Made by a program: the position numbers and the translations under genes. DNA of 32,000 bases, taken from NCBI GenBank assembly GCA_015207155.1, contig JADEXK010000054.1, forward strand, positions 10,527 to 42,526, given 5' to 3'. The notes beneath the pieces are model-generated. The model saw nothing but the letters and a program-made list of their open reading frames with translations, did not search any database and had not been told where the DNA came from. Within the stretch, counting starts at the first letter, position 1. Every line of letters starts with the position of its first letter. Below are positions 9,337-32,000 of this stretch, in pieces. The stretch comes from Nostocales cyanobacterium LEGE 11386 (GTDB lineage: Bacteria; Cyanobacteriota; Cyanobacteriia; Cyanobacteriales; Nostocaceae).

Positions 9337-10053
9337 TTACTCAATTTCTACTCTCTTTCTGGCAGTTTGCAGTGCAGGAGGAATCGGTGTTCCCATTGCT
9401 TCTGCTAATTCTGGAGGTGGTTGTTGTAGAGAAGGCAATCTCAAATATTTACCTGTGAGAATTTGAGGCCCCACCTTCATATTATGGGTGGTACTGTAGA
9501 AGCGATGAGTTTGCTTAAATTTATCTCGTTCTTGAATTGATTCATCAGCTATTTTTTTGCGAAGTTTGATGATGGCATCAATGATCGCTTCTGGACGGGG
9601 AGGGCAACCAGGTATATAAACATCTATGGGTAAAAGTTTATCAGCACCTCGCACAGCAGTCGGAGAATCCATGCTGAACATACCTCCAGTAATCATACAA
9701 GCTCCCATGGCTATTACATACTTTGGTTCAGGCATTTGCTCATAAAGCCGCATCGTTGGTTGAGACATTTTCACATTCAAAGTTCCTGCCAAAATAATTA
9801 AATCAGCTTGACGTGGGCTAGCACGAGGAAGTAGACCAAATCTGTCAAAATCAAATCGTGAGCCAATTAAGGCAGCAAATTCAATAAAGCAGCAAGCAGT
9901 TCCATACAACAGTGGATATAAACTGGAGAGTCTAGCCCAGTTATAGAGGTCATCTAATGTTGTTAAGATGACATTTTCTGATAGCTGGTTAGTTACTTTG
10001 TAACCAATCGGAGCAATTATGCTTTCTTTGTCAAATGAATTATTAGAACTCAT
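9337..10053 (-). CDS. ndhK: NAD(P)H-quinone oxidoreductase subunit K (NuoB-type, N2 [4Fe-4S])
   Basis: [58 protein letters not shown] and [12 protein letters not shown] at 10053 is preferred over the track's TTG at 10065. Confidence 0.9.
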
Positions 10054-10401
10054 GCTTTTATCCAAAAAGAGAATTTTAAGCTAATTTTCTCAAAATATCT
10101 TGTTGATAATCTAAGATTAAAAGTTTGTGGCATTTAATCACTTCCACCAAAAGGAATATGTGTTAACTAATTTAGTTTCAAGAAACCATTCTGTAGGGAA
10201 AAAACAGGAAGAGATTCTCAACCAAGAGTATGAGCTTTGTACCAGAAATTTTTGAAATCAGTTATTAAAATGTGTTTTTTATAACTTATAGATTTAATAT
10301 AAAACCATTCTTTGAGAGGAGGGTTTTTTATCGTTAAAAGATAAAAAATTAATTATGAAAAAATAATGCTTGTTGGCATTTAACGTATTTTATTTAAACT
10401 A

Positions 10402-11148
10402 ATGGAAAGAAATAATTTAAATTACTATGATTTGAATGCAGATAATTGGTGGATCGAAGGTGAAGTTTTAAATTTATCTAATCATCTTAATAAATCTAGA
10501 ATTGAATTTTTTTCAAGTTACATCCCGACATGGCAAGGAGTGGAAGTTTTAGATATTGGTTGTGGAGGTGGATTAGCATGTGAACTTTTAGCCAAGCAAG
10601 GGGCTAATATATCTGGTATTGACCTATCTTTAAATTCGATTAAAGTCGCTCAAGAACATGCTAAAAAGAGCAATTTAAAAATTGATTACTATCAAGGAAT
10701 TGCCGAAAATATGCCTTTTGAGACAAACAAATTTGATATTGTCTTGTGTTGTGATGTTTTGGAGCATGTCACAGACTGGAAACAAGTGATTTCAGAAGCT
10801 TATAGAGTTTTAACAACAAATGGTTTATTTTTCTTCGATACAATCAACAAAACTTTTAAATCCAAACTGATCATGATTTGGCTTTTAGAAGATATTTTAC
10901 AGCAGATACCACGAGGATTTCACGACTGGAATAAGTTCATTAAAGTCCAAGATTTAATATATATTCTGGAAGATACTGGCTTTAAGGATGTCAGAATAAA
11001 AGGATTTGATTTAACAGGCGGTACAAACTTTAAAACATTGACAAAGATGATTTTGAAAGGTCTAAGCAACAAGAATCAAGAATTATTTGAAATTAAAATA
11101 AATGAGGATAGTTCGGTATGGTATATTGGCAAAACGGTGAAGCTTTAG
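10402..11148 (+). CDS. Class I SAM-dependent methyltransferase, UbiG/Methyltransf_11-like
   Basis: Motif I VLDIGCGGG, plus post-I and motif II/III spacing (DIVLCCDVLEHV). The gene and its flanks are visibly AT-rich. Confidence 0.7.
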   Translation: MERNNLNYYDLNADNWWIEGEVLNLSNHLNKSRIEFFSSYIPTWQGVEVLDIGCGGGLACELLAKQGANISGIDLSLNSIKVAQEHAKKSNLKIDYYQGIAENMPFETNKFDIVLCCDVLEHVTDWKQVISEAYRVLTTNGLFFFDTINKTFKSKLIMIWLLEDILQQIPRGFHDWNKFIKVQDLIYILEDTGFKDVRIKGFDLTGGTNFKTLTKMILKGLSNKNQELFEIKINEDSSVWYIGKTVKL

Positions 11149-17587: not shown

Positions 17588-17950
17588 TTAGATAGGCAAT
17601 TGTCTCACACGAAAGGTTTCATTACTGACAGAAATAATTGCACCTATTTCTAAATCTTCCTGGCATTCTCTCAAAACTTCTGTCAACCGTTTATTAATCG
17701 CATTGTAATTTTGATTACCCAACCTAAACAAAATAACGCTAGGTAAACTATCTCCACTAACAGCTAATAGTTGAGCAAAGTCTAAATCTACAGTTAATAA
17801 AATTCTATCTTCTATACGGGCTTTAATTAAAATTTGATTATCTGGTAATTTTTGCAATCCTTGATCACGTAAATGAACTACATCATAACCATCACTACGC
17901 AACCAAGATAAAGTTCGTAATGAAATTCCCATATCTGCCAAAAACTTCAT
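17588..17950 (-). CDS. DUF5615-family PIN-like putative toxin
   Basis: MKFLADMGISLRTLSWLRSDGYDVVHLRD...LLTVDLDF follows a DUF433 gene, which is a known pairing. The alternative TTG start at 17962 forms a TTGA overlap with the upstream stop. Confidence 0.6.
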   Translation of the reverse strand: MKFLADMGISLRTLSWLRSDGYDVVHLRDQGLQKLPDNQILIKARIEDRILLTVDLDFAQLLAVSGDSLPSVILFRLGNQNYNAINKRLTEVLRECQEDLEIGAIISVSNETFRVRQLPI

Positions 17951-17958
17951 GTTACTTA

Positions 17959-18189
17959 TCAAGCAATTTTAAAGGGATAAACCCGTTCTTGAGTCAACCA
18001 CGCTGCATAAAGTAAAGATTGACGAATATCTTCTTGTTCTAAATCAGGATATTCTTCTAAAATTTCCTCTACAGGTTTTCCGTTAGCGACTAAATTCACC
18101 ACTAAAGAAACCGGAATTCGCATTCCCCGAATGCAAGCTTGTCCTCCCATAATGCCAGGATCAAACGTAATATTATCTAGACCCAACAT
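17959..18189 (-). CDS. DUF433-family putative antitoxin
   Basis: DPGIMGGQACIRGMRIPVSLVVNLVANG...ILEEYPDLEQEDIRQSLLYAAW matches the DUF433 signature. Confidence 0.7.
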   Translation of the reverse strand: MLGLDNITFDPGIMGGQACIRGMRIPVSLVVNLVANGKPVEEILEEYPDLEQEDIRQSLLYAAWLTQERVYPFKIA

Positions 18190-18393: not shown

Positions 18394-18440
18394 ACTCTCT
18401 GCGCCTTTGCGCCTTTGCGTGAGATACATTCATCAAATTT
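18394..18440 (+). repeat. Dispersed CTCTGCG-type repeat copy, with the detached second half at 18275-18300
   Basis: actctctgcgcctttgcgcctttgcgtgagatacattcatcaaattt. Confidence 0.75.
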
Positions 18441-18481
18441 TTGTTACGATAAATCTAATGTTGAGCATTGTGAGAAGGGCT

Positions 18482-18712
18482 ATGCGGTCAATTGAGCAAC
18501 TGACAGAAGAAATATTGTCCTTGCCTAGTGCATCGAGAGCTATTCTTGCAGAAAAACTGGTAGAAAGCTTAGAATTCGACACTGATTCAGTAATTCAGTC
18601 AGTTTGGGTAACAGAAGCTAAAAGAAGAAGAGACGAAGTTCAACATGGTTCTGTACAACTGATTCCAGGAGAAGAAGCCCTAGCTCAAGTTAGACAACTG
18701 ATCGAGCCATGA
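18482..18712 (+). CDS. Putative addiction-module antitoxin component (TIGR02574-like)
   Basis: MRSIEQLTEEILSLPSASRAILAEKLVESLE...W.TEAKRRRDEV. Its stop overlaps the ATG of the downstream toxin frame (ATGA at 18709-18712). ATG 18482 is preferred over the track start inside a repeat. Confidence 0.65.
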   Translation: MRSIEQLTEEILSLPSASRAILAEKLVESLEFDTDSVIQSVWVTEAKRRRDEVQHGSVQLIPGEEALAQVRQLIEP

Positions 18713-19172: not shown

Positions 19173-19598
19173 ATGGAACCAGTAACACTAACGGCCGTAG
19201 CAACAGCGATCGCTACAATAGTTTTAACTAAAGCCTTAGAAAAAACAGGCGAAAAGCTGGGAGAAACTGCAATACAAAAAAGTAACGAGTTAATCGCACA
19301 ACTACAAAAGAAAAATAAACTTCCTTTATTAGCAGATGGAAATCCCCAGCCACCGTTAGATTACGGTCAAGCAGTATTGGAATTGAAAGCCGCAGCCGAT
19401 ACAGATACCGAAATTGCTCAGTCAGTGCTAGAAGTGGAAGCAGCCGCCAACGCTGACCCCCAAGTAGCGCCAAAAGTCCAAAAGTTAGCAGAAGACATTA
19501 ACTCACAATCAGCAAGTGTCATTAATTCCACAAAGTTAGCTGAATATATTAAAAACGTCTTTCAGGGAAATACTTTCATTGGTACTCAGAATTTCTGA
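19173..19598 (+). CDS. Alpha-helical N-terminal module (hydrophobic first helix, Ala/Glu-rich, G/N/Q-rich C-terminus), in frame with the downstream NB-ARC gene
   Basis: MEPVTLTAVATAIATIVLTKALEKTGEKLGE...NVFQGNTFIGTQNF-TGA. It is in the same reading frame as 19722-22241. Confidence 0.55.
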   Translation: MEPVTLTAVATAIATIVLTKALEKTGEKLGETAIQKSNELIAQLQKKNKLPLLADGNPQPPLDYGQAVLELKAAADTDTEIAQSVLEVEAAANADPQVAPKVQKLAEDINSQSASVINSTKLAEYIKNVFQGNTFIGTQNF

Positions 19599-19721
19599 CT
19601 GTACTCGCCCGAACCGGAACGGGTAAAGTTAAATCCCAATGAAACACAGCAAAATTTACCCCTGAGTGGGGTAGTAAAATTTGTCGGACGTGAAAACGAA
19701 CTGCAAAACCTCCATCAACTT

Positions 19722-22241
19722 TTGCAGGAAAATAACCAATTAGCCATTGCAGCTATTTTGGGAATGGGTGGACTGGGTAAAACAGAACTCGCCTTGCAAT
19801 ATGCCATGACTCAGCGCGAAAACTACAAAGGTGGACTGTGCTGGTTACAGGCGAAAGCTGAGGATTTTGGCGTTCAAGTGGTGCGGTTTGCCAGAACTCA
19901 GCTTGATTTAAAGCCACCAGAAGAATTTGATTTACCTGAACAAGTACAATACTGCTGGCGGAATTGGCGTGAGGGTAATGTGCTGCTGGTGGTGGATGAT
20001 GTTACAGATTACCAGCAAATCAGACCTTACCTACAGGGCGCATCTTCCAGATTTAAAGTATTGATGACTACGCGCCAAAAGTTGGGTGCAGCCATTAAGC
20101 AATTATCTTTAGATGTATTACAACCAGATGCAGCGTTAGATTTGTTACGGTCTTTGCTGACAGAAACACCAAAGCGAATTGAGCAAGAATTAGAAGTAGC
20201 AAATCAGTTGTGTGAATGGCTAGGATATTTACCATTGGGTTTAGAGTTGGTGGGGCGATATCTGGCGCGAAAACCGGATTTATCCTTATCAGCAATGATG
20301 CAGCGCTTGGAGAAAAAGCGATTAGAACAACCTGCACTTGTCAAGCCAGAAGCCGATATGACAGCACAAAGGGGAGTGCAAGCCGCTTTTGAGTTGAGTT
20401 GGCAAGAATTAGCAGAGGATGACAGGTTACTAGGTTGTATTCTCAGTTTATTTGCAGCCGCACCTATACCTTGGAACTTAGTAGAAAAGTGTTTACCGGA
20501 GAAAGATGAAGATGAGTTAGAGGAAATTCGAGACGATAAGTTAATGAATCTGCATTTACTCCAGCGTAAAGGTAAGGGAATTTATCAACTACATCCACTG
20601 CTGCGGGAGTTTTTTCAATATAAGCTTACAGGTTTAGAGCAAGCGGAGGAATTTAGGCGATCGTTTTGCGGTGTAATGGTAGAGGTTGCCAAAAAAATTC
20701 CTCGTACTCTTACACTTGAGAAAATTAACGCTGTTTTCCTTGTCATATCTCACATAGCTCAAGTAGCAAGACATCTCATTCCACACGTCATTGATGAAGA
20801 CTTAATTTGGCCTTTCATCGCCTTGGGCAAATTTTATGAAGGACAAGGTTTGTATACCTTAGCCGAACCTTGGCGTCAGCAGTGTTTATCAACAGCAAAA
20901 GACCGCTTGGGAGACAATCATCCCGATGTCGCCACTAGCCTCAACAATCTGGCAGTAATCTACTATTTACAAGGATGCTACGACTCAGCTGAATCTTTAT
21001 ACATTCAAGATTTAGAACTGAGTAAACATCTGCTAGGAGAAAATCATCCTAATGTAGCTACTAGCCTCAACAACCTGGCAGTACTTTACTATTCACAAGG
21101 ACGCTACAACCAAGCTAAACCCCTGTTTCTCCAAGCTTTAGAACTGAGTAAACAGTTGATGGGAGACAATCATCCTGATGTTGCCCAAAGCCTCAACAAC
21201 TTGGCAAATCTCTACAAATCCCAAGGATGTTACGAGCAAGCCGAACCCCTGTTTCTTCAAGCTTTAGAATTAAGAAAACGCCTGCTGGGAAACAATCATC
21301 CCGATGTTGCCCAAAGCCTCAATAACTTGGCAGAACTCTACAAATCCCAAGGAAGGTATAACCAAGCCGAATCCCTGTATCTCCAAGCTTTAGAACTGTA
21401 TAAACAGCTGCTGGGAGACAATCATCCTGATGTTGCCACTAGCCTCAACAATCTAGCAGCACTTTACTATTTACAAAGACGATACAACCAAGCCGAATCC
21501 CTGTATCTCCAAGCTTTAGAATTAAGAAAACGCCTGCTGGGAGACAATCATCCTGATGTTGCCACTAGCCTCAACAATCTAGCAGCACTTTACTATTTAC
21601 AAAGACGATACAACCAAGCCGAATCCCTGTATCTCCAAGCTTTAGAATTAAGAAAACGCCTGCTGGGAGATAATCATCCTGATGTTGCCACTAGCCTCAA
21701 CGACATGGCAGCACTTTACTCTGACCAAGGAAGGTACAACCAAGCCGAATCCCTATATCTCCAAACTTTAGAACTAAGAAAACGCCTGCTGGGAGATAAT
21801 CATCCTAATGTTGCTCAAAGCCTTAACAACCTGGCATATCTCTACAATTCCCAAGGAAGGTACGACCAAGCCGAATCCCTGTATCTCCAAGCTTTAGAAA
21901 TAATAAAATGCTTGTTGGGAGATAATCATCCTGATGTTGCCAACACCCTCAATAATCTAGCAGCACTTTACTCTGACCAAGGACGATACGACCAAGCCGA
22001 ACCCCTCTATCTCCAAGCTTTAGAACTCAGACAACGCCTGCTGGGAGAAAATCATCCCGATGTCGCCACTAGCCTCAACAACTTGGCTGGACTCTACTCT
22101 GGCCAAGGAAAGTATGAGCAAGCCGAACCCCTTTATCTCCAAGCTTTAAATATTTGTGAACATAGCTTAGGGTTAGGTCATCCTTCAACAATAATAATTC
22201 GGAGCAACTATGCAAGTTGTTTGAAACGGACATATATTTGA
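19722..22241 (+). CDS. NB-ARC (STAND) NTPase with a C-terminal TPR array, NLR-like
   Basis: Walker A GMGGLGKTELA, Walker B LLVVDDV, MTTRQ, and the GLPLA-like LGYLPLGLELV, followed by about 10.5 TPR units. Homology (KFVGRENELQNL) continues upstream in frame to the TGA at 19596 with no ATG, GTG or TTG in between. The TTG at 19722 is only the first formal start. Confidence 0.8.
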   Translation: MQENNQLAIAAILGMGGLGKTELALQYAMTQRENYKGGLCWLQAKAEDFGVQVVRFARTQLDLKPPEEFDLPEQVQYCWRNWREGNVLLVVDDVTDYQQIRPYLQGASSRFKVLMTTRQKLGAAIKQLSLDVLQPDAALDLLRSLLTETPKRIEQELEVANQLCEWLGYLPLGLELVGRYLARKPDLSLSAMMQRLEKKRLEQPALVKPEADMTAQRGVQAAFELSWQELAEDDRLLGCILSLFAAAPIPWNLVEKCLPEKDEDELEEIRDDKLMNLHLLQRKGKGIYQLHPLLREFFQYKLTGLEQAEEFRRSFCGVMVEVAKKIPRTLTLEKINAVFLVISHIAQVARHLIPHVIDEDLIWPFIALGKFYEGQGLYTLAEPWRQQCLSTAKDRLGDNHPDVATSLNNLAVIYYLQGCYDSAESLYIQDLELSKHLLGENHPNVATSLNNLAVLYYSQGRYNQAKPLFLQALELSKQLMGDNHPDVAQSLNNLANLYKSQGCYEQAEPLFLQALELRKRLLGNNHPDVAQSLNNLAELYKSQGRYNQAESLYLQALELYKQLLGDNHPDVATSLNNLAALYYLQRRYNQAESLYLQALELRKRLLGDNHPDVATSLNNLAALYYLQRRYNQAESLYLQALELRKRLLGDNHPDVATSLNDMAALYSDQGRYNQAESLYLQTLELRKRLLGDNHPNVAQSLNNLAYLYNSQGRYDQAESLYLQALEIIKCLLGDNHPDVANTLNNLAALYSDQGRYDQAEPLYLQALELRQRLLGENHPDVATSLNNLAGLYSGQGKYEQAEPLYLQALNICEHSLGLGHPSTIIIRSNYASCLKRTYI
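20907..22241 (+). repeat. Coding tandem array of about 10.5 units of 126 bp (42-aa TPR units, LGDNHPDVATSLNNLA..Y..QGRY.QAE.LYLQALEL)
   Basis: Read from the protein and DNA. Units 5 and 6 are identical at the nucleotide level (21408-21533 equals 21534-21659). Confidence 0.9.
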
Positions 22242-24224: not shown

Positions 24225-25235
24225 TCAATTAGCAGGAATTTGCCAAATCTTGGCAGTTTCATCAGAACTACCACTAGCTAGAGTTTGTCCATCAGGACTA
24301 AAAGCTACAGACCAAACAGCCTTGTTATGACCCTTGAGATTATCAATTAACTGTCCTGTCTGTGTATTCCATAACTTAATTGTTTGGTCATAACTACCGC
24401 TAGCTAGAGTCTTTCCATTAGGGCTGAAAGCTAGAGAATAAATTGCTCTATTATGCCCTTGCATCACACAGTGTAACTGCCCATCTTTTAAATTCCATAA
24501 CTTAATTATACGGTCAGAACCACCACTAGCTAGAGTCTGTCCATCGGGACTGAAGGCTATAGACCAAATCGGTTGGTCATGAGCTGCTAAAGGTGTTCTT
24601 AATCTACCAGTGCTTATTTGCCAAAGCATGATTTTACCACCTTCATCGCCACTAGCTAAAGTCTGTCCATCGGGGCTAATAGCTACTGTTCTCACTGGTT
24701 GTGATTGACTAAAAGTTTGTAATAGTTCACCAGTCTCTACATTCCATAAATTCACCTTTTTGTCCCAGCCAGCACTAGCAATAGTTTTACCGTCAGGGCT
24801 AAACGTGACTGCTTTAACATCATTGGTATGTCCAGATAAAGTGCGGATTAGTTCACCTGTTTTCAAATTCCATAATTTAACCTGGAAATCCCAACTACCA
24901 CTAGCTAAAGTTTGACCATCGGGGCTAATTGCAACGGATGCTACAGAGTTTCCATGTCCCCGGAGTGTGTGAATCAACTTACCAGTATTAAGATTCCAAA
25001 CCTTGATACTTTTATCATAATTTCCCGTAATAAGTTTTTGACCATCGGGACTAATTGCGACTGAATAAACCCACACAGACTGAGTATTAAAAGTGCGTGT
25101 TTGTTCATCATTTACAAGTAATTTATTTGTGGAGTTACCTAAAACTAAAGAGATACTGCTTAGTCCGAGAAGCGTGGAAAATATAACACCTACTAAGCCA
25201 GTTTTTGTTTTTCTGTTAATTAGGTTGAGTTTCAT
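24225..25235 (-). CDS. Seven-bladed WD40 repeat protein with an N-terminal signal/anchor
   Basis: Seven units of the form [VI]xSVAISPDGQTLASGSxDxxIKLWN, with hydrophobic N-terminus GLVGVIFSTLLGLSSISLVLG. ATG 25235 is preferred over TTG 25262. Confidence 0.85.
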   Translation of the reverse strand: MKLNLINRKTKTGLVGVIFSTLLGLSSISLVLGNSTNKLLVNDEQTRTFNTQSVWVYSVAISPDGQKLITGNYDKSIKVWNLNTGKLIHTLRGHGNSVASVAISPDGQTLASGSWDFQVKLWNLKTGELIRTLSGHTNDVKAVTFSPDGKTIASAGWDKKVNLWNVETGELLQTFSQSQPVRTVAISPDGQTLASGDEGGKIMLWQISTGRLRTPLAAHDQPIWSIAFSPDGQTLASGGSDRIIKLWNLKDGQLHCVMQGHNRAIYSLAFSPNGKTLASGSYDQTIKLWNTQTGQLIDNLKGHNKAVWSVAFSPDGQTLASGSSDETAKIWQIPAN

Positions 25236-25284
25236 ACTAATTGAATAACTAATTAATGGCAAGTAATAGAACTAAATATGGTAA

Positions 25285-30858: not shown

Positions 30859-31287
30859 GATATTGAGGAAAAAGGATGAGGCTTATGTATTGTACCGAAA
30901 GTTATCACCTAAGAAAATGACAAGTTTTTCGGTTTGTTGTCCGAAAGATGGATTACCTCTAATCTTATAAATCCCCCTTCATGGCCAGTTTTTAACCAGG
31001 CGCTGTATAAAAACCTTCAATAGGACAGCATGAGTGTCATTGTTGCACTGCAACTAGTTATAAGTAGATAGACATAATTAAATATAAAATAAAGTTTGGT
31101 TCGTAGTGAGCGATTTATCGCTCTTTTGTAAGTTTTTAAAGGGCTAAAGCCTTGAATACGAACTGTTATTTTATTAATTCTTGCTACTTAAATCAAACCA
31201 AAAACATATAGAAATTCAGAAATGACGCAGGCGAAATTCCAGGATTTGGCGCGTCATTTCTGAAAAATATCCTAAATTAAATTTTAT

Positions 31288-31560
31288 TTATGAGTTAGAT
31301 GATTTCTCCACCTTCACTTTTTTGATTAATTCCATATAGACATTAATCTCACTAACTTCTAAATCATGCTCAACTCTAGTTACTCGCCAATTTTCTTTGT
31401 TTATGTAAATTTCCTCTCCTATCCTGGGAGTAAATTGTATGTCATAAAACTTTTTTAGATAATCTTTTTGTTTTTCTTCCCATAATATTACTTTAACTAC
31501 TTCTCTACTCATTGCTGATCCTGTTTTGTTACTAGATAAAAGCCAGCATTTTGATGACAT
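31288..31560 (-). CDS. Small hypothetical protein in an AT-rich region
   Basis: The only support is the ORF. An internal ATG at 31512 (MSREVVKV...) is an alternative start. Confidence 0.3.
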   Translation of the reverse strand: MSSKCWLLSSNKTGSAMSREVVKVILWEEKQKDYLKKFYDIQFTPRIGEEIYINKENWRVTRVEHDLEVSEINVYMELIKKVKVEKSSNS

Positions 31561-31892
31561 GCATACGGCTAGTTTATCTTACTAATTCGATTTCATATCG
31601 TAGTTAAAACCACATTCTTGAAATTGATATTTTAATAGTTATGTAAAATTATAAATTTATACAAGGCAAAAAGGCTCTTTACCACATATACAGATGCTTT
31701 AGCAACTTCCCGAAATTAAAAAAAATGGCTCTCCCAGAGTGGTTATGATAAAATACTAAGAAAAAAGCAAATATATCTCAATACAATTAGCAGTGATTAG
31801 TGGGAACAACCCAAGTGGGGAAGGAAATACAGAAGTAATTGAAAAGATAAAAGACAATAAATATTAAAAATAAAATTACAATTTTAATAAAT

Positions 31893-32000
31893 ATGCCTTC
31901 TAATCCCTTACTTCATTTTATTACTAAACGGATTAACATTGAAGAGATCACGGTAGTGAATTACGATTTTATCACCGACGATGAAATCGTAATTGAAATC
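31893..32000 (+). CDS. 5' fragment of an ORF running off the window, possibly a transposase N-terminus
   Basis: MPSNPLLHFITKRINIEEITVVNYDFITDDEIVIEI loosely resembles the N-terminal region of ISL3-type transposases. Only 36 codons are visible. Confidence 0.2.
   Translation, partial: MPSNPLLHFITKRINIEEITVVNYDFITDDEIVIEI

Follow-up and report, generated by a model that had tools for sequence, protein, structure and literature searches.

Eukaryotic viruses offer textbook cases of programmed stop-codon readthrough stimulated by a downstream pseudoknot; we know of no description of such a signal in bacterial chromosomal genes. A different kind of partnership between two products is known from filamentous cyanobacteria, in the Bell/BASS pairs of an effector and a NOD-like receptor (NLR) and, in fungi, in HET-S/NWD2: a small helical protein of about 100-140 amino acids (aa) has a hydrophobic helix at its N-terminus and a short G/N/Q-rich motif at its C-terminus, and in the cyanobacterial pairs its gene directly precedes a collinear gene for an NB-ARC/TPR or NACHT NLR (Dyrka et al. 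2020, bioRxiv 10.1101/2020.01.06.895854). We analyzed a stretch of 32,000 nucleotides (nt) from Nostocales cyanobacterium LEGE 11386 (contig JADEXK010000054.1, positions 10,527 to 42,526 of the forward strand; hereafter the window), which carries a locus with all these features, composed of a 141-aa effector gene and an NB-ARC/TPR NLR gene. The locus differs from the described pairs because its NLR has no motif of its own and lies in frame behind a conserved TGA and a pseudoknot, so that it would receive both the motif and the effector domain only by readthrough. On comparative grounds we consider it fairly likely that this is a case of programmed UGA readthrough, producing an abundant free Bell-like effector and a rare effector-NLR fusion.

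The preliminary description of the stretch had reported two open reading frames (ORFs) in one frame, divided by a single TGA and followed by 41 codons devoid of stops and of ATG, GTG or TTG, and all these coordinates were confirmed. The frame opened at 19173 comprises 141 codons, the stop and 880 further codons, and the first ATG, GTG or TTG past the TGA is TTG 19722, codon 42 after the stop, inside the NB-ARC domain. According to Pfam this domain begins at residue 32 after the stop (nt 19692), upstream of that TTG, and therefore the start-less stretch includes the conserved pre-P-loop segment FVGRENEL, as had also been proposed. In the 50 codons following the TGA no stop is present in the shared frame versus 6 and 3 in the other two frames; this open frame is not due to chance. 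A terminator scan of the window found no plus-strand terminator between the two ORFs.

We collected 80 related loci (numbered with L below) from genome assemblies of many Nostocales genera, with 55-88% protein identity, giving 81 loci with the window. The small ORF ends in TGA in 78 of the 80, and in all 70 distinct intact junctions; the base after the TGA is C in about 66 of these 70, and the codon after it is CTG in 33 and CTA in 31 (about 64 of the 70), the remainder including CTC and TTG, so that leucine is kept through synonymous codons. Rarer codons at this place are TTG in L030, GTG in L083, CCA and CCG. The ordinary stop codons of the window are TAA (16), TGA (8) and TAG (6), i.e. mostly not TGA (8 of 30, 27%), and for this reason the invariant TGA of the junctions cannot be considered neutral. 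UGA-C has been reported as the weakest termination context in Escherichia coli.

The same arrangement is also present in a PCC 7120-type chromosome, where it lies at CP183817.1 4,563,265-4,571,723 and the junction reads ...NTYN-TGA-CTA CAG TCG...; the exceptions to the pattern are few: L047, L075 and L082 are visibly broken, and L066 and L068 have another architecture. These data bear on the proposal, made in the preliminary description, of a freshly pseudogenised NLR, which is refuted because 78 of the 80 loci, and the PCC 7120-type chromosome too, carry this TGA at an identical position with an unchanged frame relation. That the window copy alone is a decaying pseudogene, or its TGA a sequencing error, we regard as quite remote; the three broken loci, the loss of the GTG GTG pair described below and a second stem weakened with respect to the closest relatives would agree with it, but the TGA, an ancestral trait, is shared by nearly all loci, both the first stem and the NLR frame of 880 codons are intact, and the changes from GTG to GTA are synonymous. 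A sense codon in the orthologues, which the earlier reader had suggested looking for, was found only once as a true variant (TGG in L208).

The frame shared by the two ORFs stays open for at least 100 codons, and up to about 1,230, into an NB-ARC or NACHT NLR in 74 of the 81 loci, and the effector adjoins and is collinear with such an NLR in the window and in nearly all of the 80 related loci. The 74 loci with the open frame have no stops in its first 50 codons, and 1-6 in each of the alternative frames. All P-loops recognised in the 81 loci are in frame 0, at distances of 51, 52, 53, 54, 55, 61 or 64 codons from the TGA, all insertions and deletions being multiples of three. In the first three contexts, from Nodularia, Anabaena and Nostoc NIES-4103, the small gene is followed about 70 nt on by an NB-ARC/TPR gene in the same frame, and the genomic neighbourhoods of the three loci differ.

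Several NLR classes stand behind the cassette, namely NB-ARC/TPR, NB-ARC with DUF7779 and a phycobilisome-protein domain (L043), NACHT/HEAT/NCC-H (L054, L056, L074, L079) and another NACHT type (L081). The post-TGA peptide LxSP(E/D)xExxxK(L/S)xP is common to these classes, and the linker LxSPExExVKLNP is kept in front of differing ones, which indicates that effector, TGA and linker form the mobile unit together. A second proposal of the preliminary description, a fused form caught while converting into two genes, does not agree with an arrangement that is old and stable, occurs in front of both NB-ARC and NACHT NLRs and possesses its own conserved RNA structure. The L043 protein (L043:4436-6421, Aetokthonos hydrillicola) is itself an unusual NLR architecture, where a C-terminal phycobilisome-protein domain (PF00502, E = 1.9e-36) takes the place of TPR or HEAT repeats. 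A genome may contain multiple cassettes: L038, L041 and L050 lie on one Scytonema UTEX 2349 scaffold, two of them only about 5 kb apart.

Whether the codons between the TGA and the NLR are translated can be judged best in a group of NACHT loci (L044, L054, L056, L058 and L060), which have no canonical in-frame start before codon 71 after the TGA. Codons 16-70 of this group, 55 start-less codons including the conserved DIYVPLGLVERK leader, display 36 synonymous versus 14 non-synonymous pairwise differences, corresponding to a ratio of non-synonymous to synonymous change (pN/pS) of 0.11; variable sites are distributed 1/1/9 over the three codon positions, and in both alternative frames pN/pS is far above 1. 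In the NB-ARC subfamily the rate of synonymous change (dS) over the first 20 codons after the TGA is 0.24, versus 0.7-0.8 in the flanks, and this low value points to a constraint at the nucleotide (RNA) level. Taken together, the stop-free frame, the insertions and deletions in multiples of three and the coding signature of the NACHT group argue for translation of the spacer, in frame with the small ORF.

Other than by readthrough, the spacer could be translated by initiation directly after the stop or at conserved ATC or ATT codons, which are considered further on. In the former case ribosomes that terminate at the UGA, held in place by the pseudoknot, would reinitiate at a CUG, UUG or GUG beside it, and an effector-less NLR would begin with the linker. 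No readthrough would then be needed to account for the multiples of three and for a spacer translated over its full length, and suitable codons do exist, because CTG follows the TGA in about half of the loci, in addition to the TTG of L030 and the GTG of L083. We nevertheless consider this explanation very unlikely, since in the remaining loci, again about half, this codon is CTA, CTC, CCA or CCG, none of which serves for initiation, and since the synonymous leucine pattern marks a sense codon; moreover, neither the required TGA nor the coexistence of a motif-less NLR with a motif-bearing effector would be explained, given that the sister loci duplicate the motif.

The favoured reading, readthrough of the UGA, also has a candidate signal. 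An H-type pseudoknot begins 8 nt after the TGA (the +12 layout), and its first stem varies among relatives as GCCCG/CGGGU, GCCUG/CAGGU, GUCCG/CGGAC, GCCCC/GGGGU, GUCCC/GGGAC and GUCGG/CCGAC. Over 67 distinct sequences 97.9% of the cells of stem 1 are paired and three of its five pairs are compensatory; the covariation score is 0.45 versus 0.25 in shuffles, none of 500 shuffles reaching the observed value, and in slid controls pairing drops to 6-38% for stem 1 and 17-48% overall. The purine tracts in the loop of stem 1 (GGGA, GAGA, CAGGA, GGGAG, CGGGAU) match pyrimidine tracts located 8-9 nt past the stem (UCCC, UCUC, UCCUG, CUCCC, AUCCCG). Loops combined with their own downstream partners give -6.46 kcal/mol versus -5.26 +/- 0.22 kcal/mol for permuted partners, a value as low not being reached in any of 2000 permutations. 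In 53 junctions aligned without gaps, 89.6% of stem 2 is paired, with double changes between GC and AU in two of four pairs; for the whole pseudoknot the figures are 94.3% and five compensatory pairs of nine, and none of 500 shuffles attained its score.

The connecting loop AAAGUYAAA is A-rich and nearly invariant. The lengths observed for the pseudoknot loop are 5, 8 and 11 nt, hence the rule of multiples of three holds even inside the RNA loop. A covariance model of the element (R1) gives one match per locus, at the junction, in 77 of the 80 loci, being absent from L065, L066 and L068, and it matches the site of the window at 67.5 bits, where stem 2 has only 3 bp versus 4-6 bp in relatives. 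As a separate observation, a second copy of the RNA element lies in L052 (L052:356-406), 4 kb upstream of the first. The stop codon with the two following nucleotides (UGACU, 19596-19600) is complementary to AGUUA or AGUCA in loop 3 (window 19627-19631), and the minimum free energy (MFE) fold of the window uses this pairing, which could represent an alternative fold hiding the stop codon. UGACU being invariant, its pairing with loop 3 cannot covary; the helix is broken without compensation in L032, L077 and L081.

An in-frame UGA followed by a stem-loop with a G in the apical loop is also the general layout of the bacterial selenocysteine insertion sequence (SECIS), and the conserved in-frame UGA, the stem-loop about 11 nt downstream and the G residues in its apical loop could be taken as signs of selenocysteine incorporation with the hairpin as SECIS. 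This we find scarcely credible: the Rfam search of window positions 19450-19800 returned nothing relevant and no SECIS, the loop pairs downstream as a pseudoknot, the site falls in the disordered linker of a non-redox protein, and no cysteine-containing homologue was seen, the sole sense variant being tryptophan. Moreover, the selenocysteine trait was not detected in Cyanobacteria (PMC1794560).

The tryptophan variant is a distant, high-GC homologue (L208:213-992, ENA NODE_3881; 35% identity), which has TGG at the TGA site and continues with a leader of NLR type, ...VTFN W LESPVPAQVKSTP...VKNFWVQGVLEQ..., with a partly degraded stem 1. It is the only true fused variant seen, and it fits tryptophan as the residue that would be inserted at the UGA, yet TGG is merely one mutation away from TGA. 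None of 336 homologues spans the junction with a real sense codon, and a search with a 99-aa junction peptide gave seven candidates of which none spans it, by means of a word index that is insensitive for short queries. A scan of metagenomes with TCGCCYGN{8,11}CRGGTAAAGT gave 120 matches, 119 of them unrelated, the pattern being too unspecific; the one true cassette (L088) again has TGA. A supposed natural tryptophan fusion, P0007, was withdrawn. It derives from L207 (ENA k141_596624), where a public metagenome gene call merges both ORFs; the contig DNA has TGA, and its W must therefore stem from the gene caller's TGA=Trp table, so that a database protein that seems to bridge such a junction can be an artefact of the code table used. 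A-to-I editing that would turn UGA into UGG was likewise rejected: TadA targets carry a UACG motif, which the site does not have.

The main rival of readthrough is a model of two separately translated genes, in which the NLR would start from an internal GTG or TTG (in the window TTG 19722 or a non-canonical codon), the pseudoknot would be an intercistronic element acting in coupling, in masking of the ribosome-binding site or in processing or stability of the mRNA, and the shared frame would be the relic of a fused ancestor. A survey of 52 distinct loci of the NB-ARC subfamily speaks in its favour. The two valine codons of NLPLSGVV, in front of FVGRE, are GTG in 44 and 38 of the 52 loci, or in 44 of 48 and 38 of 41 valine codons at these sites, versus 29% of valine codons elsewhere in these ORFs, whereas the neighbouring codons vary freely; the loci without GTG there have TTG at the leucine of NLP. 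From this codon usage the GTG GTG pair is clearly under selection, and a stand-alone NLR is probably also made in most NB-ARC relatives. Moreover, gene callers annotate two genes in every genome, and the purine-rich loop (GGGA, GGAG, GAGG) resembles a Shine-Dalgarno sequence.

On the other hand, a non-coding spacer would not be expected to hold the frame in 74 of 74 intact loci, to avoid stops in one frame only and to change by multiples of three even inside the RNA loop; nor would the 55 start-less NACHT codons be under strong selection at the protein level. Coupling does not need a TGA, and yet TGA-C is invariant; the loop resembling a Shine-Dalgarno sequence covaries with the downstream pyrimidine tract and is hence paired in the RNA, and no start codon is found 5-13 nt past it. 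The preliminary description had named orthologues with two separate genes and a proper start codon as evidence against its own account. Such orthologues exist formally, by annotation and by the selected GTG of most NB-ARC relatives, but the frame, the stop-free spacer, the indels and the start-less NACHT coding show that the spacer between the two genes is translated. We consequently judge the two-gene model to be improbable, although it deserves more weight than any other rival.

The window itself also speaks against this model. At the corresponding sites it has TTA...CTG...GTA GTA, every canonical start before the NB-ARC domain being lost while the 880-codon frame is intact; the absence of canonical starts from the 41 codons is thus a feature of the window as opposed to the GTG GTG of its relatives. 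The GTG-to-GTA changes are synonymous, in line with decoding of both codons as sense, and as a consequence of the loss of starts the full NLR would depend on readthrough alone. An NLR begun at TTG 19722 would lack its first NB-ARC helix. Weak decay of the window copy is conceivable, its stem 2 being down to 3 bp. A hairpin, UACCCC-UGAGU-GGGGUA (19657-19673 of the plus-strand RNA; the terminator scan gave its reverse complement on the minus strand), ends exactly at the site of the relatives' GTG GTG and could mask or regulate internal initiation; no clear covariation was found in the third positions of its proline and glycine codons.

The two loci with another architecture, L066 and L068, suggest the functional logic of the family. 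They belong to the same effector family, the window effector being 61% identical to that of L068, and they have no pseudoknot. Their small ORF ends ...KLAEKIGQVVVGGTGSIQNQSF, and their NACHT/HEAT NLR has its own ATG and begins MPEDTGKFAEKIGVVAHNSTVNIHNQNI..., a copy of the C-terminal motif of the effector with 50% identity over 22 aa. Functional BASS pairs show 43-56% motif identity (bioRxiv 10.1101/2020.01.06.895854), a range in which the motifs of L066 and L068 fall, and the sister loci contain the motif pair that defines the described systems. Past the motif their NLR continues ...TPINWHEICRQLL...RRLTSNP, a leader that is also found in the NACHT loci with the TGA. The NLR frame of the window starts, after the TGA, with LYSPEPERVKLNP and contains no copy of the effector motif NVFQGNTFIGTQNF; for an NLR of this kind, readthrough of the stop is the only way to acquire the motif. 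The family thus uses two solutions, either a duplicated motif on a separate NLR or a motif-less NLR in frame behind a TGA and a pseudoknot. Both architectures occur within one genome in Tolypothrix VBCCA 56010 (L052 and L068) and in Brasilonema angustatum (L066 and L082).

The 141-aa effector begins with MEPVTLTAVATAIATIVLTKALEK, a hydrophobic helix that is part of the best conserved block of the effector alignment, the N-terminus, and ends in the G/N/Q-rich tail KNVFQGNTFIGTQNF; in this respect sequence and model agree with the preliminary description. The AlphaFold2 (AF2) model is all-helical (pLDDT 70), with helices at 6-25, 31-46, 64-94, 99-110 and 119-131 and a disordered tail at 132-141. 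Of 396 homologues nearly all stand alone, are 139-152 aa long and come from Nostocales, and an exhaustive phmmer search gave 199 clusters at the 50% identity level, nearly all of 130-160 aa. The comparison with known effector domains by hidden Markov models and structure, which had been proposed earlier, was productive only in part: it provided the all-helical model, but Pfam, NCBIfam and PADLOC contain no family for the protein, and Foldseek found no match in the PDB at E <= 0.001 (best E = 0.49). Weak matches to BAX, BFL1 and Rx-CC, none of them significant, were discounted as evidence. Features that fit the published Bell-type effectors are the MEP... start, the hydrophobic first helix, the all-helical model, the G/N/Q tail, the fixed partnership with an NLR and the motif-paired sister locus. 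Through homology to the latter, a link to Bell/BASS-type modules is reasonable, and we call the effector Bell-like in this sense.

The model that we infer for the locus, taking the two ORFs as co-transcribed, can be outlined as follows. Most ribosomes would stop at the UGA (19596-19598) and release the free 141-aa effector, with its membrane-type N-terminal helix and G/N/Q-rich C-terminal motif. A minority, depending on the efficiency of the site, would decode the UGA, presumably by near-cognate Trp-tRNA, and continue through the 31-codon linker into the NB-ARC/TPR part, giving a fusion of 1,022 aa. Readthrough would be promoted by UGA-CUR together with the 8-nt spacer and the small H-type pseudoknot, in which stem 1 has 5 bp, stem 2 has 3-6 bp and loop 3 is rich in A. 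In this way the fusion would supply the sensor with the effector domain and motif that two-gene systems provide by duplicating the motif at the N-terminus of the NLR. Upon a trigger the NLR would oligomerise, and its clustered N-termini would nucleate the free effector, leading to membrane damage and to cell death or abortive infection. Most NB-ARC relatives would probably also make an effector-less NLR from the internal GTG, while the window would obtain its intact NLR by readthrough only. Since termination at UGA-C depends on release factor 2 (RF2) and on the supply of Trp-tRNA, the ratio of sensor to effector could respond to changes of translation caused by phage or stress.

The comparisons described above directly support the conservation of the TGA, of its context and of the frame, the translation of the spacer, the pseudoknot and the sister architecture, and they favour that option of the preliminary description in which readthrough arms a membrane-targeting effector. 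Several points weigh against it. All support for a readthrough product is comparative, and we know of no case in which pseudoknot-stimulated readthrough is established for bacterial ribosomes. The selected GTG GTG implies a separately initiated NLR in most loci, where the fusion may be dispensable. In the NB-ARC loci the ratio of non-synonymous to synonymous rates (dN/dS) in the spacer is about 0.8, so that there is no protein-level signature separate from the RNA constraint, a result that also counts in favour of the two-gene model. Non-canonical starts are conceivable, as the NACHT group conserves an ATC at codon 14 and an ATT at codon 46. Folding energies of single sequences are unexceptional (z = -2.1 in the window, about 0 in three relatives), and the single-sequence MFE, computed with ViennaRNA, which is blind to pseudoknots, does not single out the element. 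Finally, Pfam, NCBIfam, PADLOC and Foldseek gave no significant match that would place the effector in the Bell domain family. Weighing these points, we still hold readthrough to be the likely explanation of the locus. The coordinates of its elements are collected in Table 1.

Table 1. Elements of the effector-NLR locus in the window, with positions counted from the first nucleotide of the window.
Element	Position (strand)	Description	Source or remark
Effector ORF	19173..19595 (+)	ATG start, 141 aa; stop TGA 19596-19598	ORF scan
In-frame TGA	19596..19598 (+)	Proposed recoding site	Next base C 19599, giving UGA-C context
Spacer between stop and pseudoknot	19599..19606 (+)	8 nt, CTGTACTC	First codon CTG (Leu)
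Linker coding region	19599..19691 (+)	LYSPEPERVKLNPNETQQNLPLSGVVK, without start codon	31 codons from effector to NB-ARC in the predicted readthrough product
Pseudoknot stem 1	19607-19611 with 19620-19624 (+)	GCCCG with CGGGT	
Loop of stem 1	19612-19619 (+)	8 nt, AACCGGAA	Contains GGA 19616-19618, the 5' strand of stem 2
Loop 3	19625-19633 (+)	A-rich, AAAGTTAAA	
Stem 2, 3' strand	19634-19637 (+)	TCC(C)	3 bp, 19616-19618 with 19634-19636
GTA GTA	19671..19676 (+)	Val Val	GTG GTG in relatives, probable internal start of a stand-alone NLR
NB-ARC and 11 TPR_12 repeats	19692..22241 (+)	Stop TGA 22239-22241	Pfam
P-loop	19761-19784 (+)	GMGGLGKT	

The TPR array of the window (20908-22148) is composed of 9.8 tandem copies of a 126-nt unit, which are free of indels and show 83% matches, and two of the 42-aa repeats are identical at the protein level. 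Strong conservation among internal repeats is typical of rapidly diversifying NLR sensor domains. The number of repeats varies widely among relatives, whose in-frame ORFs measure 535-1135 codons.

Toxin-antitoxin genes cluster around the NLR cassette. Between a cytochrome P450 gene (16106-17482) and the effector gene there are a DUF5615 (Mut7-C/PIN-like) and DUF433 gene pair (17588-18189, minus strand) and an 'Unstab_antitox' addiction-module gene (18407-18712, plus strand); in the syntenic Nodularia locus L001 the P450 gene is directly upstream and a PIN/MazE pair lies downstream instead. About 2 kb downstream of the NLR, beside a gene for a ferric-reductase-like membrane protein, a stand-alone protein of 345 aa with seven WD40 repeats and without an NTPase domain of its own is encoded (24225-25262, minus strand). 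Two segments of the window have low G+C content, 10001-11000 (0.294) and 31001-32000 (0.299), versus 0.35-0.49 in the rest.

With regard to novelty, the Bell/BASS papers of 2020 and 2024 make no mention of stop codons or readthrough (bioRxiv 10.1101/2020.01.06.895854; 10.1101/2024.11.07.622273). The accessions that could be mapped here do not appear in the supplements of Dyrka et al., and the protein of L029 (RCJ37669.1) is a different one from their example (RCJ33357.1). Full-text literature searches, whose coverage is incomplete so that an earlier description may exist, found no published account of the arrangement effector-TGA-pseudoknot-NLR. The type of system, a Bell-like effector with an NLR, and the principle of recoding are already known, while their combination and a readthrough signal of the pseudoknot type in bacterial chromosomal genes appear to be new. 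Gene callers divide these loci in two and place the start of the NLR at an arbitrary codon within the frame, and for this reason censuses of the domain architectures of bacterial NLRs miss the class.

Among described defence systems the Bab/Agp antiphage system, whose MEPIS motif is shared by Bell/Hell domains and antiphage NLRs (bioRxiv 10.1101/2024.11.07.622273), is similar in the start of the effector (here MEPVTLTAV...), in the small predicted helical bundle around helix 1 and in the proposed abortive infection by sensor-triggered membrane damage. It differs because the sensor is here an NLR and there a TPR-GreA/B-PIN protein, and because the effector has 141 aa, and no structural match in the PDB, versus a Bab domain of about 80 aa.

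Precedents for two products from one frame or gene by recoding in a bacterial system are the coat/A1 proteins of phage Qbeta and the tau/gamma products of E. coli dnaX, neither of which concerns an immune receptor. The latter has a downstream stem-loop and works by -1 frameshifting. Qbeta uses a leaky UGA in a phage gene, and we know of no pseudoknot at its readthrough site. Its context is UGA-A (PMC13517186).

The closest likeness is with viral readthrough signals. In Moloney murine leukaemia virus (MoMLV) an 8-nt spacer separates the stop codon from the readthrough pseudoknot, which begins at +12, and in alphaviruses the type II context reads UGA CUA (PMC13517186); the Nostocales loci share with MoMLV gag-pol the in-frame stop, the 8-nt spacer and the H-type pseudoknot at +12, and their UGA CUA/CUG context is identical to that of Sindbis and O'nyong-nyong viruses (PMC13517186). 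The purpose would be alike as well, i.e. a fixed ratio between a short and a C-terminally extended product. The differences are that the gene is bacterial and chromosomal, read by a 70S ribosome with RF2, that the pseudoknot measures about 31-35 nt versus 50 nt, and that it is known here from sequence alone. We think it slightly more probable than its contrary that the Nostocales NLR loci contain a dedicated bacterial readthrough element (UGA-CUR, 8-nt spacer, H-type pseudoknot), a chromosomal and family-wide counterpart of retroviral gag-pol, which replaces the duplicated amyloid motif and in which the RNA sets the ratio of effector-bearing sensor. The element, covarying in about 80 loci, would be a natural test case for research on bacterial translation, and the copy in a PCC 7120-type chromosome makes experiments feasible. 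If this reading is true, the question of stoichiometry in amyloid and SMOC (supramolecular organising centre) signalling becomes directly testable, and, besides the all-in-one fusion and the paired amyloid motifs, a third wiring from NLR to effector would exist, with one frame, two products and a fixed ratio.

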